Below, piece by piece: positions 9,605 to 47,553 of a stretch of 58,523 bases of DNA (position 1 is the first letter of the stretch; each line of letters starts with the position of its first letter). The position numbers were made by a program, and so were the translations under genes. The DNA is from a bacterium. GTDB lineage: Bacteria > Patescibacteriota > Minisyncoccia > Phycocordibacterales > DATDWN01. The DNA lies in assembly GCA_037134875.1 (NCBI GenBank), contig JBAXLH010000005.1, forward strand, positions 1 through 58,523. The letters are read 5' to 3'. Under the pieces are notes generated by a model, which searched no databases, was not told the DNA's origin, and saw nothing but the letters and a program-made list of their open reading frames with translations.

Positions 9605-9635
9605 ACACAACAAAAACCCCTTTCGGGGCTTTTGT
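9605..9635 (-). terminator. Intrinsic terminator of the lysozyme-like gene
   Basis: On the minus strand, aaaagcccc-gaaa-ggggttttt followed by a T-rich tail. Confidence 0.7.
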
Positions 9636-9642
9636 GTAGTTG

Positions 9643-10185
9643 TTACTTATTGAGAGCGATTGTCTGAGAAGCGTCTGTCTGTGCAGTTTGAGTCTGGTAT
9701 TTACCCCAACATGCTCTAGATGAGCTCCATGGCTGTGTGCCCTGTTTCTCATACAATTCGCGTGCGTAGGCAGTATTACCTTCGAGTGTATAGATGTTAT
9801 AATTTTTTTCCTGAGATGTTTCGAGATGATAATGCTCGTTTATCTGCATCACACCAACATCCTCATTATTTACAACTCCTCGATGGATACTTCCATCCTT
9901 ATCAAGCTGTCTAAAGTGAGATTCACATTTTGCAATCTGAATCATAATGGGTATGTCAGAGAAGTACTTTCGCACGTACTCTTCGGTACTCATGATGATT
10001 TCCACTTCTTTTCTCGATATTTCTCTTACAATGTTCTGGTCCTCCAGTTTTGGAGCGTCTGTGACTGTGACTGGACTTGCGAGTCCCCCAGCTGCAGACA
10101 TAACCATAAGCAAACTAATAGCAGTGAAATTTAAAATACGTGTGTGTTTAGATAATAATTCTGAATGTAATGCGGTAGTGGACAC
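9643..10185 (-). CDS. Secreted lysozyme-like / SLT (Rpf-like) transglycosylase
   Basis: Hydrophobic N-region, IAKCES catalytic-Glu motif, GVMQIN, and GTQPWSSSRACW; start uncertain. Confidence 0.75.
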   Translation of the reverse strand: MSTTALHSELLSKHTRILNFTAISLLMVMSAAGGLASPVTVTDAPKLEDQNIVREISRKEVEIIMSTEEYVRKYFSDIPIMIQIAKCESHFRQLDKDGSIHRGVVNNEDVGVMQINEHYHLETSQEKNYNIYTLEGNTAYARELYEKQGTQPWSSSRACWGKYQTQTAQTDASQTIALNK

Positions 10186-10302
10186 CCTAAAAGCGGGTTT
10201 CCAAAATAAAAACTCAGTACTTCTGAGTTCCTTATACTATATCATACTCGACCCCATCTTGTCAATACAACAACACAAAAACAACCTCTTGAAAAGGTGC
10301 AA

Positions 10303-10375: not shown

Positions 10376-12070
10376 CTAGAAATCTTGGTACTGGAGAGGT
10401 TGGAGTGAAAAGAGAGCAGAAACGTTCTTTGCAGCGGCAATGTTTGGCAAAACACAGTCATTTTTGCCTATACAATCACCCTGCCAACCCGAAAATCGCC
10501 ACTGAGCTGAGTCTGGATAGGCTCGGAGTGTCACTGTACTGCCCTGATCATATTTTTTTGTACACGTCGCACCACAATTTATAAGACCATCAGGACTTCC
10601 GCTCGTAATACTCTTTACTGACCCACCATAAGTCTTGGTCACATTCACATTGAGCTGACTGTAGACCGTCACACTGGCAGACTTTGAAGCACTACCCGAA
10701 GCATTTGAACAAGTAATCGTATAGGTTGAATTTGTATTGATTCCAGAGATAACCTTATTTCCTTCCGTCGTCGGAGTCACAGCACCTGTCCATCCACCGG
10801 AAATATTGCAGGATGTTGGTGTATTTGTAGTGAGCCAGTAAAGGTTGGTATTAAATCCAGACGTTCCCGACACTGGATTTGCAGTGAAAGTGGTGATGGT
10901 TGGAGGAGCTGCTGGACATGTGACTGAATCAATAGCAAAACCACCATTTGCAGCATTGGCAGAATTTTTTGTTGCCACCCAAATATAATAGGTTTGACCT
11001 GGAGTAGATGCAAATGACTGGCTTGTTCCGGCACTTGTATTTTGAAATGATGGGTTATATATATCAAAAGTTGGACTTACAGAGAAGTATGATTGCGTAT
11101 ACCCAGCTGGCAGAGTCCATGAAGCATTGACCTGAGTACCTGGAGCTGGACAAGAAAGGACAAGGTTGGTTGGAGTTGGTGGTATTGTAACTTTGACTGT
11201 ATCTGATGTTTTTTGTCCGTTAGCACCAGAACACGTAATAGTACTTGAATAATATGTATATGGATTTGGTATATATGGTGATGCACTTGATGTCCCTCCA
11301 TTTGGATTAATCGCAACACTTGGATTTCCTGTTAATAGGTAACCTGAAGATAGAGTACAGCCGCCAGAAGCATTTGCTATAGCACCCCATGACAAACCAT
11401 ACGTAGCTCCAATTGGCAAGTTATTATATGGCCCCCAAATCTGAGGGACTTCAACTGGTCCGTCTGTATTGGTGTAATAACCGGCAGTAAACCAACCATA
11501 ATTTCCACTACCACTTGGCCACGGAACACTTGTAATTTTGAGATCTGGTGTACCAAGTACAGGTATAGGGTTTTGAACTGTAATTGTAAATGTTGACGTA
11601 ACTGGAACCATTTTACCTACCCCATTGAGAGGATATTCATAAACTTGAAAAGTTACAATATATGTACCTGGTGTAATATTTCCACTAATCGTATAAAGAG
11701 CATCATATCCATAATTTGAATAAATTGTTGCATCGAGACCATTACTGCCGTTATTTGCATACTGAAATGTACATGTACCACCTGTTGGACAACCTGTTAC
11801 GCGCCAGCTAACATTTGTCCATCCTGTTTGACCCATATATTGACTACCCGCCCATGTGGTTATTGTTTTTAAATACAACCAATCACCTTGATTGATTGTA
11901 ATATTTCCAGCTGTACTATAATAATATGGCCACAAAGTTGAATTTGTGTAATACTGTTGAACAGCAAGATATCCGGTAGAAGCACGCACCGACACAGTCA
12001 AAAATAATGAAATAATTAGTACTAGCGCAAAGTATGTACTGTATGAAATAAGTGTAGTTAATTTTTTCAT
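10376..12070 (-). CDS. Secreted S/T/G-rich adhesin-like protein (Ig/PKD-like repeats, C-terminal divergent InlB B-repeat-like domain)
   Basis: Signal peptide from MKKLTT (ATG 12070), Cys-bridged beta-rich modules, CGATCTKKYDQGSTVTLRA...FSGWQGDC, ends PLQYQDF. Confidence 0.75.
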   Translation of the reverse strand: MKKLTTLISYSTYFALVLIISLFLTVSVRASTGYLAVQQYYTNSTLWPYYYSTAGNITINQGDWLYLKTITTWAGSQYMGQTGWTNVSWRVTGCPTGGTCTFQYANNGSNGLDATIYSNYGYDALYTISGNITPGTYIVTFQVYEYPLNGVGKMVPVTSTFTITVQNPIPVLGTPDLKITSVPWPSGSGNYGWFTAGYYTNTDGPVEVPQIWGPYNNLPIGATYGLSWGAIANASGGCTLSSGYLLTGNPSVAINPNGGTSSASPYIPNPYTYYSSTITCSGANGQKTSDTVKVTIPPTPTNLVLSCPAPGTQVNASWTLPAGYTQSYFSVSPTFDIYNPSFQNTSAGTSQSFASTPGQTYYIWVATKNSANAANGGFAIDSVTCPAAPPTITTFTANPVSGTSGFNTNLYWLTTNTPTSCNISGGWTGAVTPTTEGNKVISGINTNSTYTITCSNASGSASKSASVTVYSQLNVNVTKTYGGSVKSITSGSPDGLINCGATCTKKYDQGSTVTLRAYPDSAQWRFSGWQGDCIGKNDCVLPNIAAAKNVSALFSLQPLQYQDF

Positions 12071-12071
12071 A

Positions 12072-12524
12072 TTATTTTTGATATCGAATAGATACAAATG
12101 TTAAATCTGCTTGTTTTGTGAGATCCACAGAAATTCGTTGCTGACCTTTTGAAGCGACTATCTTGCCTGTACCGCCTGTATTGGAACTACTACTTGCCAC
12201 GAGCCACTGTTTATATTCGAGAAAAGCTTTGTACATCGAGAAAACAGAACCTATTTTATTGTTTGTTATATATTCCAAATAATCCCCTTTTTGATCTTCT
12301 GGTGTCTTGATTGAATATGATTTTGAGAGAAGGGTTCGCTCAAATATGAGGTCGTCTGGATAGTCCGATGGGTACTGAGGAATTTCAGGTGGTTTTATGA
12401 AAGTTACTGTTGTTGAGACTGTATTCTTACTTTTTATATTGGTGTACACCATATAAGAAACTCCTACAATAGCAACAACAAGAATGACTATGACGAGTAT
12501 TTTTATTACAGTAGCTCTATTCAT
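12072..12524 (-). CDS. Small membrane-anchored protein, paralog of 16288-16755
   Basis: N-terminal TM helix; YPSDYP, Y..L...QW and KGQQRISV motifs. Confidence 0.8.
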   Translation of the reverse strand: MNRATVIKILVIVILVVAIVGVSYMVYTNIKSKNTVSTTVTFIKPPEIPQYPSDYPDDLIFERTLLSKSYSIKTPEDQKGDYLEYITNNKIGSVFSMYKAFLEYKQWLVASSSSNTGGTGKIVASKGQQRISVDLTKQADLTFVSIRYQK

Positions 12525-12533
12525 TGTGTTTGA

Positions 12534-15500
12534 TTAAAACTCTTGATAATTAAGTGGATCGAGAGAAAAGAGTGCCTTTGCCGTTTTGGCCGCACCTGTC
12601 ACAGAAACAGCACATACATTTCCACTCGTTGGTCGAGTACAATCCCCTTCCCATCCAACAAATTTCCATGCACTCGAGCTTGGTACTGCACGGAGTGTAA
12701 CCGTCGTGCCATTACTATAACTTTTTACACACGATATACCACAAGAAATTCCCCCATCGTCACTCGCTACTGTTCCTCCATATGAAGGTTGGACTGTCAG
12801 GTTGTATGTTGTCAAAATAATTGGTGTGACTGTTACTTGTCTCGTTACACTACCTGCACTGTTTTGACATACGAGGGTAAATGTTGTTGGAGTCGAGAAT
12901 CCTGTGACTGTCTCACTGCCCCCGGCAATTGATTTTGCACCACTCCATCCTCCAGATGCAGTACAAGATGTTGGACTGCCTGTAGTTGTCCATGTGAGAG
13001 TTGTTGTACGTGGCAGAGCACTTGTTGGTGTCGTTGCAGAAAGATTGAGAGTTGGAGTCACAACTGCAGTAGATACTGCGACAGTCTTACTTGCTGTTGC
13101 AGGTGTTGGTATGGAACACAAGTTTGCAAAACCAGTATGGTTGGCTACTGTACATGTATATGTTTTGGTTTGGGCTGACGAGAGCGCTGCACACGAGAAA
13201 TTTGCTGTTGTATTACCTGTACCTGTCCAATTTACAAATGTACACTCAGAAGGATTTAGGGTGACATAAGCATTGTTGACCCCATAATTACAACTAACAG
13301 CAATTGGTGTACCGGTCTGAGCAGTAGTTGGTGCTGTTACTGTACCAGCTGTTGGGGTAATACATGATCCAGAAGCACTTGGATCTACACAAGTCGTATT
13401 TTGCAGAATATATGAACTGGAAGCACCATTTGCACCATATGCTGAATGAACCCACACGCTATATGTTTGTCCTGGTGTGGTTGAAAACGATTGACTTGTT
13501 CCAACACTAGTTGAAACACCAGCAACAGTTGGACTTTCGTAGAAATAGCTGGATGAATAACCTGCGGGAAGACTCCATGTTGCGGAGAGTGTTGTGCCAG
13601 GAGTAGGACAAGAAAGAACAAGGTTTGTTGGAGGAGGAGGTGTGTTTACTACAAGACTGTCAGAGCCAGACCCGCCTGCACCAGTACACGAGAGTGTATG
13701 TGTTTTTGTAAGAGCATTAGTTGTAAATATTGAACTGCCACCATTTACATTCACAGATGCTCCATCCAAAGTACAACTTGTTGCACCAGAAACAGCACCC
13801 CATGACAGAGTATAGTCATAGCCGTAGTGAAGCATTACTGGGCCATCAGTATTTACATATGGTGCCCACCACACAGTGGTATGAGCCTTGTCAGCCCATG
13901 CAGTGAGTTTCAAATCAGGCGCTGGAGGTGTTGGACCGACAACTGTATATGGTGTGGATGCTTGAGAATTAAAATCTACAGTATCCAAATTTACAAATGA
14001 GTTTGCATATGCTCTAGCTGTATATGTACCAGCAGTATTCACCGTCCAGTAATCCTGACTCCATAACGAATGATTACTTGTGAGAGAATACACGCGCGAC
14101 GCATGTGGAGCAAGCATACTTGAATCGGAAGTGTAGACATTTATATCACTCGAAGTATTTTTTGGTATATTGCCAGATTTATTTCCGTAAATACTGTTAT
14201 AGAAAACTGGACCACCGCCAGGCAAAAAAGCTGTGGTGTACGAGCTGTTATTTATAATCGCTAAATATGGGTAAATCTTTTCACCAATATTGAATGTACT
14301 TTTTATATTACCGTTTTGATCGGTCAAATAAAATTGTGTAATTGATAGTGTTGATTTTCCACCACTTCCGCCAGTTGTCGGCAAACAATAATAAATTGCA
14401 CAAGATGTATTACATTTTTGAACAGAAACAGATGATACTGGACAACTATTTGTGTTTTGTGCCCCATTATCACATTGTTCTGTGCTTTGTACTATTCCAT
14501 CTCCACAACTTGCTGGTGCACTACACGAGTTGAGTCGACAACTGATACTACATGTCGAAGGACATGCACCGTTTGCAGACCCACGATCACATTGTTCGCC
14601 TGTTTCTTGTATGCCATTACCACACACCGGTCCGGATGGAGCTGGTGCTTGGAGATTTACTGTGACTTGTGCGAGAGTTCCGGCAGATGTTGTGTCCCCT
14701 CTTTTTTGCAAATAAAATACTGTGCCATTATTTACCCATGCGCCTGATGTGTATGTTCCAGCACCTGGTCCACCCATCATAGCAAGAGTTCCGGATGGAC
14801 TACTGACACGCAAATCATATTCACACGTTGCATTGGTTGAAATAGTTGTCACTCCGACTGGCTGACTTGTGATAATAGGATTTGGATTTGCAGAAATGGT
14901 TCCGGTACATGCTGGAGGGTTTGAGGTTTTAACTGCACTACATGATGCATTTGCTCCACCGTTTGTCCCGGCACACTGCCAAGTCCACGGACCTGTACCA
15001 GAAAAACCGGTTACTACTCCAAGAGCACATAAACCTGCACTTGAGGAACTCAAAGTTGAAAATGATTGACCATTTGAAGATCCACACTGACCGGCCGTAG
15101 AAACAACTGGATCTGAGACTGTTATTGAGGGACACTGAGTTTGTCTTCCAATACCGTCAGTGAGTTTTATTCTATCGTATGTTCCTGAGGTTGAGAAAGA
15201 TGTTGTAAATGTATCACTCCCAACATTTAATGTAGACTTGGATGAAGGATTTCCTCCTTGAGCTGACCAATTAAAATTACCGTCCCCATTTATACCAGTA
15301 AAAGTTACACTTTGATTTGTGTATACAGATGTAGAACCAGAAGTAAGTGTACATTCTGGTGGAGTAGTCACCACTGGCGGTTGACTTATTGTCACCACCC
15401 TATCCTGAGATTCTGAGTTGACGGGAGACGTACATGTCAGACGATATGTCTGTGTTGGATTTGATGGACTGTATGTCAGATTTCCTGTAGATACTTGTCC

Positions 15501-16277
15501 CGATGAATCTGTACCAGATGTTACTGGAGCATATGTACCCCCAGACAATACACTAAGTGTCCATGGAAATGGACCTCCTGTGCCGAAAGCAAAACTGACA
15601 GATGCACTCGTACCAGACTGTACAGATGAAGGAGTTATGCTAAATGCCTGAATAGAACACTTTGGAGCTTGTCGTATTTTTATATAAAAATCCTCATCAA
15701 GAATATTACCTGTCTTTGATGATACGCCTATCCTCCAAGGACCAGCACCTCTTGTAGCATTTGGGTCAACCTGCAAAGTGAAGACTGCTTGATAAGTACC
15801 ATTTCCACCTTGGAATACTCTCTCACAAATTCTTGCGCCATATGCAGGATATGTATACGATGATGCTCCACCATTTATACCGCCAGTTGCAGTACAATTG
15901 CTAATCTGTACAGTCTGACTTGGGTTGGAAGAATTTTGGTAGAAATAACCAAGTGGTGTTCCATTAAATATAGAACCAATGCCCAAAGAAGGTGTATCTG
16001 TTAAAGCCGAAGTTACCTCAATTGTTCCTGTAACAGTAATCACAGCACCAGGATCAACTTCGTATGTATAAATGGGACTACCATCATCATTTTTTTCTCC
16101 AGAATCACTGAATGTCCCACTTGGTGAATACACGTTCATTGAAATACTTCTATTGAAAGTATCTGCACGTACAACTGAAATTATTCCAGAAAAATAATAT
16201 GCACACAGGAAGCTCAAAAATATCATACTACCTATTACCGCCTTTTTCCCAATTTTATTTTTTATTTTTTGTACCAT
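12534..16277 (-). CDS. Large secreted adhesin/S-layer-like protein with Myxococcus-type Cys-rich repeats and a C-terminal InlB B-repeat-like domain
   Basis: Signal peptide; CGNGIQETGEQCD and CGDGIVQSTEQCD repeats; module shared with 10376-12070; ends PLNYQEF. Confidence 0.8.
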   Translation of the reverse strand: MVQKIKNKIGKKAVIGSMIFLSFLCAYYFSGIISVVRADTFNRSISMNVYSPSGTFSDSGEKNDDGSPIYTYEVDPGAVITVTGTIEVTSALTDTPSLGIGSIFNGTPLGYFYQNSSNPSQTVQISNCTATGGINGGASSYTYPAYGARICERVFQGGNGTYQAVFTLQVDPNATRGAGPWRIGVSSKTGNILDEDFYIKIRQAPKCSIQAFSITPSSVQSGTSASVSFAFGTGGPFPWTLSVLSGGTYAPVTSGTDSSGQVSTGNLTYSPSNPTQTYRLTCTSPVNSESQDRVVTISQPPVVTTPPECTLTSGSTSVYTNQSVTFTGINGDGNFNWSAQGGNPSSKSTLNVGSDTFTTSFSTSGTYDRIKLTDGIGRQTQCPSITVSDPVVSTAGQCGSSNGQSFSTLSSSSAGLCALGVVTGFSGTGPWTWQCAGTNGGANASCSAVKTSNPPACTGTISANPNPIITSQPVGVTTISTNATCEYDLRVSSPSGTLAMMGGPGAGTYTSGAWVNNGTVFYLQKRGDTTSAGTLAQVTVNLQAPAPSGPVCGNGIQETGEQCDRGSANGACPSTCSISCRLNSCSAPASCGDGIVQSTEQCDNGAQNTNSCPVSSVSVQKCNTSCAIYYCLPTTGGSGGKSTLSITQFYLTDQNGNIKSTFNIGEKIYPYLAIINNSSYTTAFLPGGGPVFYNSIYGNKSGNIPKNTSSDINVYTSDSSMLAPHASRVYSLTSNHSLWSQDYWTVNTAGTYTARAYANSFVNLDTVDFNSQASTPYTVVGPTPPAPDLKLTAWADKAHTTVWWAPYVNTDGPVMLHYGYDYTLSWGAVSGATSCTLDGASVNVNGGSSIFTTNALTKTHTLSCTGAGGSGSDSLVVNTPPPPTNLVLSCPTPGTTLSATWSLPAGYSSSYFYESPTVAGVSTSVGTSQSFSTTPGQTYSVWVHSAYGANGASSSYILQNTTCVDPSASGSCITPTAGTVTAPTTAQTGTPIAVSCNYGVNNAYVTLNPSECTFVNWTGTGNTTANFSCAALSSAQTKTYTCTVANHTGFANLCSIPTPATASKTVAVSTAVVTPTLNLSATTPTSALPRTTTLTWTTTGSPTSCTASGGWSGAKSIAGGSETVTGFSTPTTFTLVCQNSAGSVTRQVTVTPIILTTYNLTVQPSYGGTVASDDGGISCGISCVKSYSNGTTVTLRAVPSSSAWKFVGWEGDCTRPTSGNVCAVSVTGAAKTAKALFSLDPLNYQEF

Positions 16278-16287
16278 AGTTTTTTAA

Positions 16288-16755
16288 TTATTTTTCTAGT
16301 TGAAATGTTATTTGAATATCATTGACCTTTACGGGTGCGATAATGACAGAAACCTGCTGACTCCCTTTTTTAACCTGTATGAGTGCTGTATTTTTGGCAA
16401 TTGAATTTGAAATAACAACCCAGCCTTTTTGTGGTAACTCCGTTGCGTATAGATTTATTGCATCAAGCATATTTTTGCCTGAAATATATGAAATATTGAT
16501 TTGTTTTCTACCATCAGGCATTTTTACCTCTCCGGAATAGTTAATTTTTTTGTCTTCCAGCATTATTTCTCTCGGAAAATCTGAAGGTAGACCATCATAC
16601 AGGGAAACTGTGGTACCTGTTGCGTAGCCTTCTGGAGTAAGAACTTTGTATGGTTTTTTCTTTGTAAGCTCAGGAATAAAAACGATACCGATAACAATTA
16701 TTAAAATTAAAATAACAACTACTATAAAATAGTTTGAATTAGATTTATTTTCCAT
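16288..16755 (-). CDS. Small membrane-anchored protein, paralog of 12072-12524
   Basis: N-terminal TM helix; LPSDFP, Y..L..KGW and KGSQQVSV motifs. Confidence 0.8.
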   Translation of the reverse strand: MENKSNSNYFIVVVILILIIVIGIVFIPELTKKKPYKVLTPEGYATGTTVSLYDGLPSDFPREIMLEDKKINYSGEVKMPDGRKQINISYISGKNMLDAINLYATELPQKGWVVISNSIAKNTALIQVKKGSQQVSVIIAPVKVNDIQITFQLEK

Positions 16756-16837
16756 ACCAAAATTATACTATATATAAAAAGTAAATGACAGAGAAAGACA
16801 CAAAAATGTGGATAAGATACAGGGTTTAAAGATAAAC

Positions 16838-16886: not shown

Positions 16887-18623
16887 TTACGGGACGTCAT
16901 TCCCATCACCTCCGTCGTCAGATGACTTAGGAGTTTTGGGAGCAATCACCGTGAGATCAATAGCGTTACTCACTGCACTATTGAGCTCAATATAAAGTTT
17001 TGCCTGACCAATCGGCAGATCCGGAACACTCACTGTGATGAGCTCCGAAGCGCACGACTGGATCCCGGCATAGAACTTGTCTCCAAACTCGCTGACGAAC
17101 GCCACACGAGTTTTGCCACCCGAACCCACGCAACCTTCGGTGGGTAGAGGAGCAACATAAGTCGCCGGATCATTATGTGTCACACCCTTTGCGAGGATAG
17201 ACACAGTAGACCCAGACGAAATCGTGGAAACTTTATTGAGTGTAGTCGGGTCGACCGCACTCATTACAAATGTGTCGTCAAACTGCGTCCAAAAATCCAC
17301 TACAGACGAGTTCGACGAGCTGGTAAATACTCGAATCTTCGTGCCATCCGTGATCTCGACGTCGCCAACAGGGTTGTTGACAACAAAGAGCCCAGGATAA
17401 CGCTCGACTTTGTACTTACCAATAGAAGCACCTGACAGATCCAGACGAGTCTGGGTCGACAGGCTATTGTATTCGGGTCCGTTGGTAACAAGGATGAGCT
17501 TGTTACGCGTCCAATCTCCCTCTTTGTAGACCACCATATACTTGGTGTCATAGAGAGACGGGTCGCACGAACCATTATTAACTACGCAGGTCTCCCTCTT
17601 ATACCCGCCAGTCGGAAGAGGGTTAGTCTTCGGATAGAACGGGTATGCGACATCGCCAGAAGACCCATCATCAACCTTGTCCCAAATCACAGTCCTGTTG
17701 ACATCAGTCACCCGATACCAAACTGTGGAAATCTTTGGAAACGTAGTAGAGTTACTTTTTCTTTCTACCAGGTTGACCATAAATCCAGAAGAATTGACAA
17801 CAGCCCAATTTTCTCCGTCAGAACTCCCAGAATCAAAGGTTTGGAGTGACACTCCATCAGTGCTGAAGCCCAGTTTCTGCTTCATTTCTTCGCTTGGAGC
17901 GAAGGCGCACTTAGTCTCACGGAGATACGTCGACGGGAGAACCCCATTGACCTTTCCGGAAACAGTGTCAATCGCATTAATGATATCATCCCGGGTCGTG
18001 AGACCCGTGATAGCCGTATCGATAGCTCGAAAGTCGCCGTTGTTCACAGCACCGAGCAACTCGATCGGTCCAGCCGCGCAGGCGTAGCCAGGCGATGGAT
18101 TATGCCAAAAGTCCGAAGATCCGCCCACAGTCAGCCAGTCGGCCGACTTGAAGACGGGTGCCATCCAGACATTGACAAACGGTTTTATTGATGGATCATC
18201 CTTTGCCATCTCTTTGTAGAGCCAGGCAGCCTTCGCTTTCGCGAAACCTTCTGGCAAAGAGAAGTCATTGGACAAAACAGTGGAGCAAGGGGTAAACCTT
18301 GCCAAAATATATTCATGAATGAGAACCCGATTGCTCGGATCAGTCACGTCATATTTATTGACTGGGCCATATTTGTTTCCAAACATGGTATGACCCTCGC
18401 AGACATAGGTGCCCGCGAACGTGGTCGTATTGTCCCATTCAATAGTAATGGAAGACCTCTGCGGAACAGAGATCCGTTCCAAATACGGAGTGACCTTGTT
18501 GATCACCCAGTCGGCATCAAAATTCGACGCCGAGTTGTTACCTGCATAGTTTATTTTTACCTCCGCCCCGAGTTGGGACAGAAGTGCAAACGTGACAATG
18601 AACAATCTGTTCAGTTTGGACAT
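16887..18623 (-). CDS. GC-rich secreted protein, probably horizontally acquired; degenerate gluzincin-like N-domain and IPT-like C-domain
   Basis: ATG 18623 preceded by AGGAGG and an upstream TGGTATAAT; signal peptide; LIHEYIL...LPEGFA; spot counts of three 60-nt lines gave 38-55% GC. Confidence 0.75.
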   Translation of the reverse strand: MSKLNRLFIVTFALLSQLGAEVKINYAGNNSASNFDADWVINKVTPYLERISVPQRSSITIEWDNTTTFAGTYVCEGHTMFGNKYGPVNKYDVTDPSNRVLIHEYILARFTPCSTVLSNDFSLPEGFAKAKAAWLYKEMAKDDPSIKPFVNVWMAPVFKSADWLTVGGSSDFWHNPSPGYACAAGPIELLGAVNNGDFRAIDTAITGLTTRDDIINAIDTVSGKVNGVLPSTYLRETKCAFAPSEEMKQKLGFSTDGVSLQTFDSGSSDGENWAVVNSSGFMVNLVERKSNSTTFPKISTVWYRVTDVNRTVIWDKVDDGSSGDVAYPFYPKTNPLPTGGYKRETCVVNNGSCDPSLYDTKYMVVYKEGDWTRNKLILVTNGPEYNSLSTQTRLDLSGASIGKYKVERYPGLFVVNNPVGDVEITDGTKIRVFTSSSNSSVVDFWTQFDDTFVMSAVDPTTLNKVSTISSGSTVSILAKGVTHNDPATYVAPLPTEGCVGSGGKTRVAFVSEFGDKFYAGIQSCASELITVSVPDLPIGQAKLYIELNSAVSNAIDLTVIAPKTPKSSDDGGDGNDVP

Positions 18624-18866
18624 GATGTCCCTCCTGCCCGTATTATACCAAGCACATTTTATAAAGTAAAGCAAGTTTACAACTGTGGATAACCTATTTT
18701 TAATAAAATGTAGCCTACAATATAGCTATTTTACCAAAAAATCACATTATTTTATCAAAAATTTGACCCATTTTTAGGTTGATAATTTGCCAAAATATCG
18801 ATACTATGAATATGGAAGCGCCAAGCTTACTACGGCTCGTCACTGAGCTCAATCGGGAGGAAAAAA

Positions 18867-39017: not shown

Positions 39018-39857
39018 TTAAAGTAATTCTATTTCCTCTCTGACCTTTTGTGCTTCTTCACCTCTCACCCCGACAGTTTCAAGTATGTCAGGATTTTCCA
39101 AAATCGTTTTACACAGAACAATACCAGCATTCAAAAGCTCCTTTTTGGCGTGACCATCGAGAGTTGTGAGACATGTGAGTGGATGAAGTTTTGTCTCCAA
39201 AATCATATCGTGCAAGTTGCCGTGTGTCGGATAATTCCAACCAATCATCACGAGACGATTGCCTTGATGTGATCCATATTCTATCGCTGTACTCGTAAAT
39301 TTTGTATTTGTCACAAGCCATCCCTCATCGAGCTGTCTACCTTTTTTGCCGTAATCAAATGTTTGAGTACTGAGATCATCAAATCTTTCTTTGACATACA
39401 GTGCAATTTTCAAATCGGATTTAACACCGAGTTGATTGTGAAATTTTGCCTCTACCATAATAAGTTTCTCTGGATTCCATGCCACTACATCTATTTCGTG
39501 TTCAACATACTGACCCTTCACAATCTGACCCGTAAGAGTTTCAAAACCTTTTGTTTTTAAAATTTCAGCAACATAGTCCTCGAATGGAAAACCCGACGGA
39601 CCGAGCTCCATAATCGCTCGCTTGAGAGAATATCGTATTGCAACTGGTCGATCATCTGAATGGAGAAGTTCGAATGCTTTATTATAAATATCCCGAGTAG
39701 TCATTCCATCAGTCAGCGTATCTGTGATAGTACTCAAAATTGACTCTATTATTTTTGAGTTTGCACCAGCGTGCCTGAGTGAGTGTTCGAGCTTTGCTAC
39801 ATCAAACTGCTCTTTTGTCCCATCAAACTTTATAATATAAATTGGTTCCGTATTCAT
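39018..39857 (-). CDS. ATP-cone + Mrr-like PD-(D/E)xK nuclease fusion
   Basis: IIKFDGTKEQFDVAKL ATP-cone; GFPFEDYV...HEIDVVA...VEAK nuclease motifs. Confidence 0.8.
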   Translation of the reverse strand: MNTEPIYIIKFDGTKEQFDVAKLEHSLRHAGANSKIIESILSTITDTLTDGMTTRDIYNKAFELLHSDDRPVAIRYSLKRAIMELGPSGFPFEDYVAEILKTKGFETLTGQIVKGQYVEHEIDVVAWNPEKLIMVEAKFHNQLGVKSDLKIALYVKERFDDLSTQTFDYGKKGRQLDEGWLVTNTKFTSTAIEYGSHQGNRLVMIGWNYPTHGNLHDMILETKLHPLTCLTTLDGHAKKELLNAGIVLCKTILENPDILETVGVRGEEAQKVREEIELL

Positions 39858-43392: not shown

Positions 43393-43428
43393 AATCAAAA
43401 AACTTCCCAAATGGGAAGTTTTTTGATT
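43393..43428. terminator. 17-bp perfect inverted repeat, probable terminator
   Basis: aatcaaaaaacttccca-aa-tgggaagttttttgatt. Confidence 0.75.
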
Positions 43429-44465
43429 TACGCAATACTGTATTTACCGTCTTTTGATTTCTTGAAATATTTTGTGTTCTGAAGGTTTACCATAATCGTG
43501 TTTTCCTTTACATATCTTTCCTTCAAAACCTTTTCAACAACTTCTTCTTTTGTCAGTGGGCCGTTCTTTTCGATAACACCTTTGATAACATCCTTTACAA
43601 CGCCAGACATATATCCCCATTCTGCGAGTGCATAGAGTCCTCTGCCGACGAGCACAAATCGAGGATCTTTGATAAGTTCATTGTGTGTTGTTGCTACGTG
43701 AGCTTTCTTTTTGAAAACCTCTGTAATGAGTTTTGCAACTTCTCGGAAGTGAATTGGAGAACCGTGTCGTCTGATGACGAGGAATGCATAGTCTCGCATA
43801 CCTTTTGCTTTGATATTTGGAGAATCTGCCTTACCCCATTCGCCGAGTGGGTTTTTGTCGATGAGTTTTGAGAGCGCGAGCCATCGTTTTGCAATTTCCT
43901 CTTTTTTATATTTGTCTGCAACATCTTTGAGATTTTCCAAAAACTTCTCAATCATATCTGCTTCGAGCAAAATCTCATCATCTGACAAGTTTGAATACAA
44001 ATCACGAAGTGACTCATGAATTCTCTTTGAGAGATCCTTGTCAACATGCCATCTGTGTTTGAATTCGTCGTCTTCTTTTTCTTTTATGAAATCTTCACCA
44101 ACAATGAGCAAAAAGTGGAGGTGGTTTTGGATTGATTTGTCTTTTGAGAGATGATTCAAAAGATCTTCTTCGGAAATGACAGCTCCGAGACCCTCAACAA
44201 TAGCTTTGAGCTCATCAAACACAGGTTTTTCTTTTGTGTATTCTTTTGATTTGCGAATACTTGCAATAGAATAGTTTTCTATCTGTCTCACTCGCTCTCG
44301 TGTGATTTTGTATTTCTTTCCGATTGCTTCGAGAGTCATCTTTCGAGTTTCGTTTCCGAGACCGAGACGATTGATCAAAACGTCCTGGGCTCTCTGTGAG
44401 AGAACTGAAAGAAGTTTCTTTGTAACCTGCTTTGGCTTAAATGTTATTGGTGATTTTTCGCTCAT
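43428..44465 (-). CDS. Sigma70 region-4-like HTH fused to C-terminal winged HTH (HARE-HTH-like)
   Basis: TLEAIGKKYKITRERVRQIE; PIHFREVAKLI...HNELIKDPRFVLVGRGLYALAEWG; no sigma region 2 seen. Confidence 0.8.
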   Translation of the reverse strand: MSEKSPITFKPKQVTKKLLSVLSQRAQDVLINRLGLGNETRKMTLEAIGKKYKITRERVRQIENYSIASIRKSKEYTKEKPVFDELKAIVEGLGAVISEEDLLNHLSKDKSIQNHLHFLLIVGEDFIKEKEDDEFKHRWHVDKDLSKRIHESLRDLYSNLSDDEILLEADMIEKFLENLKDVADKYKKEEIAKRWLALSKLIDKNPLGEWGKADSPNIKAKGMRDYAFLVIRRHGSPIHFREVAKLITEVFKKKAHVATTHNELIKDPRFVLVGRGLYALAEWGYMSGVVKDVIKGVIEKNGPLTKEEVVEKVLKERYVKENTIMVNLQNTKYFKKSKDGKYSIA

Positions 44466-44563: not shown

Positions 44564-47464
44564 CTACACCACGACAAAATTAACAAGTCTATTCGCTACA
44601 TAAATGGTTTTTTTGATTTCTTTACCCAAAAGCCACTTGTCTACCTCTGGAAGTTTTTTGGCAATATCTACTATTTCATCCTGTGCAGTTCCTCCAGGAA
44701 CAGAGCATTCTGCCCGTACTTTTCCATTGATTTGAATCATAATTTTGATCTCTGTTTCAACAATTTTTTTCGGATCCGCTTTTGGCCATTTTTCGATGGA
44801 AATCAAGGTTTTGTTTCCTATAGCGTGCCAAATTTCTTCTGTAATATGTGGCGCAAACGGAGAGAGAATTTTGAGAAACATTTCAAAATCCTCTTTGTTT
44901 ATTTTCTCCAATTTTTCAGCCTCATTTAGGAAAATCATCATTCCAGAAATGGCTGTGTTGAATCCCATTTTTTCAATATCATCAGAAACTTTTTTGAGTG
45001 TCTTATGGAGAAGTGTTTCAAATTTTTGATCAGGTGTTGTATTTTTTACAACACGAAACTGAAGTCGCCAGACGCGGTCAAGAAATCTTCGGGCACCAAT
45101 AATATTTTGCTCATCCCAACCAATCGCCTGATCAAATGGGCCCATAAACATTTCGTACATTCGGAGCGTATCGGCACCATATGCTTTTACAATATCATCG
45201 GGATTTACCACATTTCCGCGAGACTTGCTCATTTTTTCCCCACCCTTTGCAAGAATCATTCCATGAGATGTACGTTTTTTGTACGGTTCTGAAAATGGCA
45301 CAAGTCCAATATCAAACAAAAACTTGTTCCAAAATCGTGAGTAGAGCAAATGGAGTGTTGTATGTTCCATTCCACCGTTGTACCAGTCCACTTGCATCCA
45401 CTTTTTCATTTTTTTCATATCCGCAAACTTCTTTGAATTTTTTGGATCTGTGTATCGCAAGAAATACCACGAACTTCCCGCCCAGTTTGGCATTGTGTCT
45501 GTCTCGCGTTTTGCCTTCCCACCACATGTTGGACATTTTATATTGACCCACTTTGAAATACTGGCGAGTGGTGACTCCCCTGTATCTGTCGGCTCATATT
45601 TTGTAACTTTTGGAAGAGTTAGTGGTAAGTCCTTTTCTTTGAGGGGCACAATTCCACAGTCCGGACAATGTACAACCGGAATCGGTTCACCCCAATATCT
45701 CTGACGAGAAAACACCCAATCTCGCAATTTGAATTTTGTTACTGATTTTCCGTGAACAAATTTTGTGATTTCTTTTTTAGCCTTTTCACTATCTGTTCCA
45801 TTAAATCTTCCAGAGTTAATCATCAATCCGTTTCCTAAATAAGATGAACTAACAAAAATATTTTTATCACTCGTTTTGTCAAACCCTAATTCAATAATCC
45901 TGGCTATTGAATTCGTAATAAACCACACCCAATGATCATTATCATGACCACCATTATGTGCAAGTATGTTATCCAACAATTCTTTGCCCGAAACCCAAGT
46001 TAAATCAAAATCTTCATGTTCTTCATGATGTACCTTTTTTTCCTCTGTGCTATTCAAAATAACGAGAAAACAGGTTGCCCAAGCAGAGCGATTAACTTTT
46101 CGTAAACTATTATAATAGTGAGTATATGCTGTGCCAACAAATTCAACTTTTTTAAAATCATACAGACCACTTTCCTCCTCAACTTCACGAAGAATGCCAG
46201 TTTTAATATCTTCGCCACTATCTACTCCACCAGAAAACAGTCTAAAAGCACCGTTTTTTTGGAGGCCGACTGCGTATTTTTGTGTTTTTGGATCAAAAAC
46301 AATTCCACATCCACCATTTCTCTCTTCTTCATTTTCTCTCTTGAGACCAAATTCAGGAGCTATGACTTGTTTTATTGGTAGTTCATACTTCTTTGCAAAC
46401 GCAAAATCACGTTCGTCGTGAGCGGGCACAGCCATTACGCTACCTGTACCATATGTTGCAAGTACATAGTCAGCAATAAAGACCGGAATTTCTTCGTTGG
46501 TTGCAGGATTTATTGCCTGTACACCACGGAGTAGGACTCCTGTCTTTTCTTTTTCATCGGCAGTACGCTCTATCTCAGCTTTCTTTTTTGAATCAGAAAT
46601 ATATGTTTCTACCTCACTCCAGTTTGTAATTTGATTTTTGAGTTTCTGTACAAACTCGTGTTCCGGCGCAAGTACAACATATGTCGCTCCGAAAATTGTG
46701 TCTGGTCGAGTTGTAAAAACTTTTATTTTTTCGGAAATTTTTTTGAGTGCAAATTCAATTTCTGCGCCCTCGCTCCGTCCAATCCAATTTCTCTGCTGAA
46801 GTTTTATTTTTTCCAAATAGTCGACAGTATCCAAATCTCTATCTAATTTGTCTGCATACTTTGTAATCCGAAGCATCCACTGTTCCTTCTCACGTTTTTC
46901 TACCGGAGTACCACATCGCTCACAACAACCGTTTACAACCTCCTCGTTTGCAAGACCGATTTTATCCTTTGGACACCAATTTATATTTATTTTTGCTTTG
47001 TATGCCAGATCATGTTTCAAAAATTGCAAGAAAATCCACTGCGTCCATCTGTAATATTTTGGATCAGTTGTGTTTATTTCTCGTGACCAATCAAAAGACA
47101 TCCCGAGACCTTTAAATTGTTTTCTGAAATTGTCTGTATTTTTCTGTGTGACTTTTGCCGGCTGGATTCCGGTTTTGATAGCATAATTCTCTGTGGGAAG
47201 TCCGAATGCATCCCAACCTATTGGAAATAGAACATTTGCCCCGTTCATTCGTTTCTTGCGCGAAATAATATCCATCGCAGTATATCCGCGAACATGGCCG
47301 GTATGAAGTCCATCTCCTGATGGATATGGAAATTCCATAAGTCCATAAAATTTTTGTTTTTTTGAAGTATCAGAAGCACGAAAAACTTTTTTCTTTTCCC
47401 ATTCTTTCTGCCATTTTGGCTCTATATTACTTGGCTCGTATTCCTTGGATATAGTTTTTTTCAT
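44564..47464 (-). CDS. leuS: Leucine--tRNA ligase with an inserted Nudix domain
   Basis: FPYPSGDGLHTGH, FTTRPDT, RDWVFSRQRYWG and KMSKS; start at ATG 47464. Confidence 0.97.
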   Translation of the reverse strand: MKKTISKEYEPSNIEPKWQKEWEKKKVFRASDTSKKQKFYGLMEFPYPSGDGLHTGHVRGYTAMDIISRKKRMNGANVLFPIGWDAFGLPTENYAIKTGIQPAKVTQKNTDNFRKQFKGLGMSFDWSREINTTDPKYYRWTQWIFLQFLKHDLAYKAKININWCPKDKIGLANEEVVNGCCERCGTPVEKREKEQWMLRITKYADKLDRDLDTVDYLEKIKLQQRNWIGRSEGAEIEFALKKISEKIKVFTTRPDTIFGATYVVLAPEHEFVQKLKNQITNWSEVETYISDSKKKAEIERTADEKEKTGVLLRGVQAINPATNEEIPVFIADYVLATYGTGSVMAVPAHDERDFAFAKKYELPIKQVIAPEFGLKRENEEERNGGCGIVFDPKTQKYAVGLQKNGAFRLFSGGVDSGEDIKTGILREVEEESGLYDFKKVEFVGTAYTHYYNSLRKVNRSAWATCFLVILNSTEEKKVHHEEHEDFDLTWVSGKELLDNILAHNGGHDNDHWVWFITNSIARIIELGFDKTSDKNIFVSSSYLGNGLMINSGRFNGTDSEKAKKEITKFVHGKSVTKFKLRDWVFSRQRYWGEPIPVVHCPDCGIVPLKEKDLPLTLPKVTKYEPTDTGESPLASISKWVNIKCPTCGGKAKRETDTMPNWAGSSWYFLRYTDPKNSKKFADMKKMKKWMQVDWYNGGMEHTTLHLLYSRFWNKFLFDIGLVPFSEPYKKRTSHGMILAKGGEKMSKSRGNVVNPDDIVKAYGADTLRMYEMFMGPFDQAIGWDEQNIIGARRFLDRVWRLQFRVVKNTTPDQKFETLLHKTLKKVSDDIEKMGFNTAISGMMIFLNEAEKLEKINKEDFEMFLKILSPFAPHITEEIWHAIGNKTLISIEKWPKADPKKIVETEIKIMIQINGKVRAECSVPGGTAQDEIVDIAKKLPEVDKWLLGKEIKKTIYVANRLVNFVVV

Positions 47465-47553
47465 AATACTCAGTATGCCAAAAAACCCGCATAAAATCAA
47501 AGTGTCAAGGACTTGCCCTGACACTTTTGATTATTTTAATTTTGTTTTACTTT

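Follow-up and report, generated by a model that had tools for sequence, protein, structure and literature searches.

The 58,523-nt window analyzed here (positions 1 to 58,523 of contig JBAXLH010000005.1, from a bacterium of the Patescibacteriota) contains a tandemly duplicated two-gene cassette. Each copy consists of a gene for a small membrane-anchored protein, which we call the partner, followed by a gene for a large secreted protein. The gene order, protein lengths, common orientation and gaps of 1 to 10 bp given in the initial annotation of this region agree with the coordinates of the open reading frames (ORFs). The features of the cassettes are listed below, with protein lengths in amino acids (aa).

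16755..16288, minus strand: partner 1, 155 aa; N-terminal transmembrane helix (aa 7-30) and alpha/beta domain; PF27226 (AF_1845)
16277..12534, minus strand: large protein 1, 1247 aa; Sec signal peptide, Cys-rich and immunoglobulin (Ig)-like all-beta modules
12524..12072, minus strand: partner 2, 150 aa; divergent paralog of partner 1 with a transmembrane helix and the same domain
12070..10376, minus strand: large protein 2, 564 aa; Sec signal peptide, all-beta Ig-like domains, no anchor
13946..13104, minus strand: module of large protein 1 (aa 778-1058) shared with large protein 2
12561..12806, minus strand: C-terminal Flg_new_2 domain (PF18998) of large protein 1, 37.7 bits (cut-off 23.6)
12537..12557, minus strand: tail PLNYQEF-COOH of large protein 1, beyond the Flg_new_2 domain
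10403..10570, minus strand: C-terminal Flg_new_2 domain of large protein 2, 38.4 bits (cut-off 23.6)
10379..10399, minus strand: tail PLQYQDF-COOH of large protein 2
16791..16762, minus strand: promoter-like site CTGTCA-18-TATAAT just 5' of partner 1 (consensus match only)

The four co-oriented genes are separated by 10, 9 and 1 nt, respectively. For large protein 2 we took the ATG at position 12070 as the start, and public gene calls also give a protein of 564 aa; its longest ORF starts with a TTG at 12097 and overlaps partner 2. A consensus scan of the minus strand for terminator-like sites between the four genes returned only a weak one, which lies within large protein 1. Because of the nucleotide-scale gaps, the promoter-like site 5' of partner 1 and the absence of a convincing internal terminator, the four genes probably form one operon.

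The two partners are paralogs, as had been proposed. They are 30% identical over 82 aa (BLASTP, E=6e-11) and 24% identical over their full length, both belong to PF27226, and the motifs previously listed for them are present in both. The large proteins are 38% identical over about 300 aa (aa 778-1042 versus aa 164-454; E=7e-35), and their last 160 aa or so are 44% identical (E=5e-33). The shared module is characterized by the motif string PDLK..NTDGPV..LSWGA..PTNLVLSCP..LPAGY..GTSQSF..TPGQTY, and is also carried by P0005, a protein of another organism (here, P numbers denote homologous proteins and L numbers the loci collected). The claim that the large proteins have a module and a C-terminal domain in common is therefore correct, although the extent of about 170 aa proposed for the module was too small. 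The tandem duplication is old, because the best DNA repeat is 70% identical over 94 nt, and the copies have diverged asymmetrically. Partner 1 is closer to the partners of L014 and L016, which belong to a different locus type (40-42% identity), than to partner 2, and shows no BLAST-detectable similarity to the partners of the syntenic loci L005, L017 and L018. The partners of L017 and L018 are themselves 39% identical, versus 78% for the DnaJ proteins of the same two loci.

Both large proteins start with typical, type I-like Sec signal peptides (..VRA|D and ..VRA|S), and large protein 1 contains 41 Cys residues. When the last 95 aa were scanned alone, both proteins matched the Flg_new_2 domain (a divergent InlB B-repeat) above the gathering threshold; scans of the whole proteins had missed it. 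In large protein 1, the domain spans residues 6-87 of these 95, so that the final 8 residues lie outside it. The homologs P0003, P0004, P0005 and P0009 carry the domain as well. For the remainder of both large proteins, no Pfam or NCBIfam family was found above threshold, and no toxin or enzymatic domain was detected with either collection. Sub-threshold matches of the whole-protein scans of the four cassette proteins (Cwp8_D2, DUF4307, DUF4215 and myxo_disulf_rpt; Pfam, NCBIfam) were not used. Just under the thresholds for DUF4215 and myxo_disulf_rpt, aa 574-610 of large protein 1 (14448-14558, minus strand) form Cys-rich acidic repeats of the type CGNG..E.GEQCD... The large protein of L014 (L014:9464-11584) has similar Cys-rich repeats, which points to small modules being shuffled among the large proteins.

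The AlphaFold2 model of large protein 2 (mean predicted local distance difference test, pLDDT, of 60) is all-beta; aa 390-480 form an Ig-like domain that is predicted with confidence, and the tail (aa 557-564) is disordered. In fold searches the model matched strings of Ig domains, for example titin, ICAM and the Aureispira grappling-hook protein; since the model is of low confidence, we used these matches solely as an indication of "strings of Ig-like domains". Judging from the Ig-like all-beta architecture of this one model, it is plausible that the large proteins are adhesins.

Each of the four cassette proteins contains a single hydrophobic segment, which is N-terminal. Outside the signal peptide, neither large protein contains a hydrophobic 19-mer, and no transmembrane helix, lipobox or sortase signal was found in them; the NCBIfam models of sorting domains did not match them either. 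This bears out the earlier statement that they lack a C-terminal transmembrane helix and an LPxTG anchor. An LPTTG sequence does occur inside large protein 1 (aa 632-636; 14370-14384, minus strand), which could mislead automated annotation. It was rejected as a sortase signal because no transmembrane helix or other hydrophobic segment follows it.

Conservation of the gene pair in other genomes had been set in advance as a test of the proposed link between the two proteins. Neighbourhoods were collected in three independent ways, using partner homologs, large-protein homologs and a degenerate DNA pattern. In every related locus with readable downstream sequence, the partner gene is followed by a gene encoding a signal peptide. 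This holds for the window (twice), the P0003 contig, L005, L008 (twice), L009, L011, L014 and L015, and also for L017, L018, L022, L023, L026/L029, L027/L032, L028, L030 and L031. In L016/L025, a lipoprotein gene sits between the partner gene and the large gene. Most gaps between the partner and large genes range from -11 to +12 nt; the gap is 35 nt in L011, and about 580 and 76 nt for the first and second pair of L008, respectively.

The search with partner homologs yielded loci in which a partner of 152 aa precedes a protein of at least 547 aa (L006), 155 aa precedes 791 aa (L009), 154 aa precedes 956 aa (L011), 153 aa precedes 706 aa (L014) and 152 aa precedes 845 aa (L015). In L016, a partner of 152 aa and a lipoprotein of 174 aa are followed by a protein of 991 aa, and in L013 a partner of 156 aa is followed by a truncated ORF with a signal peptide. 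L008 likewise carries two cassettes in tandem, in which partners of 160 and 157 aa precede proteins of 642 and at least 640 aa, respectively. Through the large-protein homologs we found the P0003 contig (146 aa then 707 aa) and L005, where a partner of 179 aa is followed by proteins of 1081 and 938 aa. A scan of GTDB genomes with the C-terminal domain of the large proteins, which served as the reverse test, yielded L017 and L018. In both, a partner gene is located immediately upstream; these partners of 180 and 179 aa (E of about 1e-12 with the family hidden Markov model, HMM, described below) end 1-4 nt before the gene of a 1073- or 1088-aa protein. The degenerate DNA pattern, based on the partner motif GTTxSLY..P..FP, was run on metagenome contigs, and 12 of its 13 matches were true family members. 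The loci found in this way that have readable downstream sequence contain an ORF with a signal peptide within -11 to +11 nt, except for L025 with its intervening lipoprotein gene.

These loci fall into at least five types of neighbourhood: DnaJ..SLT..M23..GltX; NusA..PilB/PilC..TIM/PGK; TrpS/TyrS; DUF4012; and prepilin peptidase with pilin. The adjacency thus held across at least five unrelated neighbourhoods and, as the surroundings differ, the partner and large genes travel as a unit. The cassette is widespread in the Patescibacteria, or candidate phyla radiation (CPR), and a functional coupling of the two proteins is well supported. In L020 (389-1807, minus strand), a 472-aa ORF joins a sequence resembling the large proteins (TSP1-like WSAWGACS.., Cys-rich) to a partner ectodomain without transmembrane helix (..NLKNAYIPPTKVLTPESYPVGTTVSLYDQ..FQYEK*). 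This ORF could be a natural fusion, or result from a deletion or an assembly chimera on the 2-kb contig; if natural, it would support the functional link between the two proteins.

Several of these neighbourhoods raise the question of whether the cassette belongs to a type IV pilus, with the large protein as a pilus-associated or pilus-delivered adhesin and the partner as an assembly or alignment factor. In L014, L015 and L016/L025 the large gene is directly followed by PilB (T2SSE), PilC (T2SSF) and pilin genes, in L006 a T2SSE gene lies 1.6 kb downstream, and in L008 prepilin peptidase and pilin genes lie upstream. The spans of the pilus genes adjoining cassettes are:

L014:11650-15135
L015:12046-17106
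L016:13305-16279
L006:12418-14100
L008:236-2027

However, no pilus genes were found among the window ORFs scanned or in L005, L009, L017 and L018, and L029 occupies the syntenic position without PilB and PilC. Moreover, the signal peptides of the large proteins are type I and not class III, and the N_methyl model of class III signal peptides matched none of the four cassette proteins. No PilN, PilO or GspM structure was among the top 50 fold matches of the partner, either. We therefore consider a role as pilus accessory decidedly unlikely.

A further conserved element is found at the extreme C-terminus of the large proteins. At most loci, they end with a short tail of the consensus [basic]-x-P-(hydrophobic)1-2-[YF]-x-[ED]-x-COOH:

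Window, 1247 aa: ..DPLNYQEF
Window, 564 aa: ..QPLQYQDF
P0003: ..KPLIYQEF
L005, 1081 aa: ..KPIIYKEF
L005, 938 aa: ..KPLLFQEI
L017 and L018: ..KPLIYREF
P0004: ..RPIYEEF
L014: ..TPIFIED
L015: ..KPSFNEN
L016: ..QPIYEEE
L029: ..IPTFIED
L023: ..IPLFKEF

The tail is specific to these large proteins. Among 212 non-redundant stop-to-stop ORFs of at least 150 aa, taken from the loci fetched by then, the regular expression P.{1,2}[YF].[ED].$ matched nine, all of which encode large proteins in clusters headed by a partner gene (eight directly downstream of it, and the 938-aa protein of L005 second in line); none of the other 203 ORFs matched. Two further cases were found among the loci identified with the degenerate pattern. 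The tail follows last domains that are unrelated to each other: Flg_new_2, Ig-like and Cys-rich.

The position of the conserved parts also bears on whether the cassette encodes an effector directed against hosts or competitors together with a small protein that protects the producer. Both genes evolve fast, as the 39% identity of the L017 and L018 partners versus 78% for DnaJ illustrates, and cassettes are tandemly multiplied in the window and in L008, as might be expected of such pairs. Yet the domain scans showed neither a toxin nor an enzyme. An immunity gene is normally placed after the gene of its toxin, but here the small gene leads. Moreover, what is conserved here are the C-terminal domains and the tail, where a toxin would have a variable C-terminus. 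An effector-immunity pair is accordingly very improbable.

The partner belongs to a large family. PF27226 (AF_1845) is a recent Pfam entry that is already catalogued, uncharacterised and without functional annotation; according to precomputed matches, partner 1 belongs to it with E<=1e-5, partner 2 is a "weak" match, and most relatives elsewhere are also matched. An HMM that we built from 70 relatives gave E values of 6.6e-56 and 2.1e-32 for partners 1 and 2, respectively, which is circular as both were in the seed. An exhaustive HMMER search with a two-sequence profile returned 434 clusters (at 50% identity) with E<=1e-3, of which 72 reached E<=1e-10; almost all have lengths of 145-190 aa and the same architecture. 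The names attached to the clusters looked up were almost always "hypothetical protein". In a word-indexed homolog search, partner 1 matched only itself, and the 70-sequence profile gave few relatives. In the alignment of the 70 sequences, P57, F60, P61, Y103, W112 and Y153 are near-invariant.

The AlphaFold2 model of the partner (pLDDT 95) consists of the transmembrane helix (aa 7-30) followed by an alpha/beta domain of about 115 aa, with a beta-sheet and one long helix. In a Foldseek search of this model against the PDB, nothing was found at E<=1e-3; the transmembrane helix in the model lowers the TM-scores (template modelling scores). The best, weak match was DcrB (6e8a; E=2.6e-3, TM-score 0.42), and other weak matches were PsbP (1v2b, 2vu4), SciW/EagT6 (6xrb, 6xrf), PA1624 and PA94, with TM-scores of at most 0.44. 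Sequence searches of the PDB gave no matches, and no sequence similarity of the partner to DcrB-, PsbP- or Eag-type folds was found. The modelled likeness to DcrB and PsbP weakly suggests a lead, and not membership. Several of the matched proteins of the DcrB/PsbP/Mog1/DUF1795 group are extracytoplasmic or bind proteins, and Eag chaperones are encoded beside their cargo. The partner differs from DcrB, PsbP and Eag in being anchored by a transmembrane helix, and is neither a lipoprotein nor cytoplasmic. In P0080 and P0096, two distantly related lipoproteins, the partner domain is repeated three or four times in tandem. Because of these tandem copies in lipoproteins, and because DcrB is periplasmic and PsbP lumenal, the globular domain of the partner is probably extracytoplasmic.

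The Eag likeness suggests that the partner could be a transient chaperone or export-folding helper acting after translocation, similar to PrsA or Eag proteins, with the large protein subsequently released or held in another way. The tight gene order, in which the partner comes first and is probably translationally coupled, would suit such a role, as would the weak fold matches to SciW and EagT6, whose genes adjoin those of their cargo. A single partner can precede two large proteins, and Cys-rich multi-domain proteins are likely to need help in folding. Eag chaperones, however, are cytoplasmic and bind N-terminal transmembrane helices of effectors of the type VI secretion system. Here, the partner is anchored in the membrane by a transmembrane helix of its own, and the cargo is equipped with a Sec signal peptide and lacks PAAR, Rhs and toxin domains. 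By inspection, no conserved N-terminal motif was seen among the mature large proteins, and a chaperone role leaves the conserved C-terminal tail unexplained. Such a role is therefore unlikely. The cassette does not resemble two-partner secretion (TpsA/TpsB) either: the partners are 150-155 aa long with one transmembrane helix, and neither ShlB/POTRA nor haemagglutination-activity domains were matched in Pfam or NCBIfam.

A further possibility is that the cell wall or an S-layer holds the large protein through its tail or its Flg_new_2 domain, the partner being a co-expressed envelope protein, for instance a tether between membrane and wall that acts through its ..Y-E-K terminus. Members of the partner family often end with ..FQYEK, and 73 of 141 have a terminal Lys, versus a Lys background of 8%; both window partners end with Lys as well (16288-16296 and 12072-12080), and other members end with Q, R, P or N. 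Braun's lipoprotein ends with YRK-COOH, and its terminal Lys is cross-linked to peptidoglycan. The likeness of the ..YEK end to this YRK end is speculative; neither window partner contains a Cys or a lipobox. Genes for cell-wall enzymes (SLT-like, M23) occur as neighbours in the window-type locus, and a protein with the tail can lack an immediately preceding partner. On the other hand, the terminal Lys is far from universal, the SLT and M23 neighbours occur in only one of the five types of neighbourhood, and a wall tether leaves the near-invariable adjacency across unrelated neighbourhoods unexplained. These points together make a wall tether quite unlikely.

We favour the reading, to which we give a probability of roughly 40%, that the partner docks or retains the large protein non-covalently at the cell surface. 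To do so, it would act on the outer face of the membrane. The conserved tail, as the most economical candidate for the recognised element, would be the best candidate for the handle gripped by the partner, and one partner may serve several large proteins. This would leave the variable N-terminal and central domains facing outward, where they could, for instance, attach to host cells. A more specific proposal, which is tentative and on balance doubtful, is that the cassettes form an undescribed sortase-independent display system of the Patescibacteria, in which PF27226 proteins read a minimal tail tag, P-hydrophobic-[YF]-x-E-x-COOH, and thereby dock hypervariable surface proteins that have no anchor of their own.

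Several observations weigh against docking by the partner. The pairing is not one to one: in L005 and in L029, a single partner gene is followed by the genes of two large proteins (663 and 781 aa in L029). In L021 (2682-5963, minus strand), a 934-aa Flg_new_2 protein with a tail (..FFNYREF) is preceded by a cupredoxin-like transmembrane protein in place of a partner, and a partner gene is located some 2 kb beyond, at the edge of the contig. We considered whether the preceding 142-aa protein might be a divergent partner and rejected this, as its transmembrane helix alone matches the family HMM and the rest is cupredoxin-like by eye. L005, L029 and L021 contradict the initial annotation on one point, namely that each partner is dedicated to its own adhesin. 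Charged residues flank the transmembrane helix of the partner on both sides, and the sequence alone leaves the topology unsettled; the resemblance to known folds, which speaks for an outward domain, is weak (best TM-score 0.42, E of 2.6e-3). The tail motif was defined post hoc on related proteins, several of which are orthologous, and the large proteins paired with the most distant partner subfamily end otherwise (..IHEGQ in L006, ..IEINP in L009, ..RKEGN in L011 and ..SILKP in L008). Finally, the partners are only 24-30% identical though the tails are near-identical, which is a poor fit to a tail-specific receptor.

Docking by the partner can be compared with known ways of holding proteins at the surface. 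It would follow the same logic as the cohesin-dockerin and WxL/Csc systems of monoderm bacteria, in which clustered genes encode a secreted protein without an anchor and a small dedicated cell-bound protein that retains it by a C-terminal element. These systems differ in that their handle is a folded module, whereas the putative handle here is a tail of 6-8 residues; no cohesin, dockerin, WxL or DUF916 domains were found in the cassette proteins (Pfam, E<=0.1 to 1). Secreted surface proteins of the LPXTG/sortase, PEP-CTERM, GlyGly-CTERM and MYXO-CTERM types likewise carry a short conserved motif at their very C-terminal end. Those sorting signals, though, add a transmembrane helix and a basic cluster, whereas the tail described here ends two residues past its aromatic-x-acidic core and has no hydrophobic segment. 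Both window large proteins end in a domain of the InlB B-repeat/Flg_new_2 (TIGR02543-type) proteins, but Flg_new_2 is one of many domains of the large proteins, and other cassette proteins end in different ones. A full-text search of an incomplete literature collection found no account of the gene pair, the tail or AF_1845. If docking holds true, the cassette would add new components to non-covalent surface display, which as such is known.

The cassettes are flanked by the following gene on the downstream side:

9643..10185, minus strand: SLT/lysozyme-like membrane-anchored protein, 180 aa, with weak SLT matches

A promoter-like site of its own (10265..10236) precedes this gene, and a strong terminator-like hairpin (9635..9610) follows it; both are consensus matches only. 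Its product is 60-65% identical to the orthologs in L005 and L018, and the gene lies directly 3' of the cassette at every locus of the DnaJ..GltX type. As this synteny is confined to that type, the SLT-like neighbour is probably not a component of the cassette. Directly upstream of partner 1 (16887-18674, minus strand) lies a gene for a secreted protein of 578/595 aa without a Pfam family. This protein lacks the tail (its end is ..GDGNDVP), and was found only in the near-identical contigs L001-L004 and not in the syntenic loci of other genomes.

The surroundings are ordinary chromosome, with genes for MurG, FtsW, GltX, DnaK/DnaJ/GrpE, RpoA, alanyl- and leucyl-tRNA synthetases and a DUF5671 protein. 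GltX and DnaJ of the window share 63-68% identity with their counterparts in a 'Candidatus Paceibacterota' metagenome-assembled genome (L018) and in a related one (L017), which places the organism among the Patescibacteria/CPR. Scans of the window with Rfam and for tRNA genes gave no matches. Elsewhere in the window, the leucyl-tRNA synthetase of 986 aa (44564-47524, minus strand) has a NUDIX match at aa 425-519, right after the editing domain, which is an unusual insertion. Two other minus-strand genes combine domains in an unusual way: in one (39018-39857), an ATP-cone is joined to a restriction-endonuclease-like Mrr_cat domain, and in the other (43428-44465), Sigma70_r4 occurs with HARE-HTH.

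Cultivated CPR bacteria live attached to other microbes, and recognisable signals that would anchor their large unannotated surface proteins are often missing. The cassette helps to predict which giant "hypothetical" proteins are surface-displayed, and gives PF27226 a first functional context together with a testable receptor-tag hypothesis. If the tail is indeed read by the partner, it would establish a new class of signals for C-terminal sorting or docking that have no transmembrane segment, and would open a route to the host-attachment proteins of the episymbiotic CPR bacteria.

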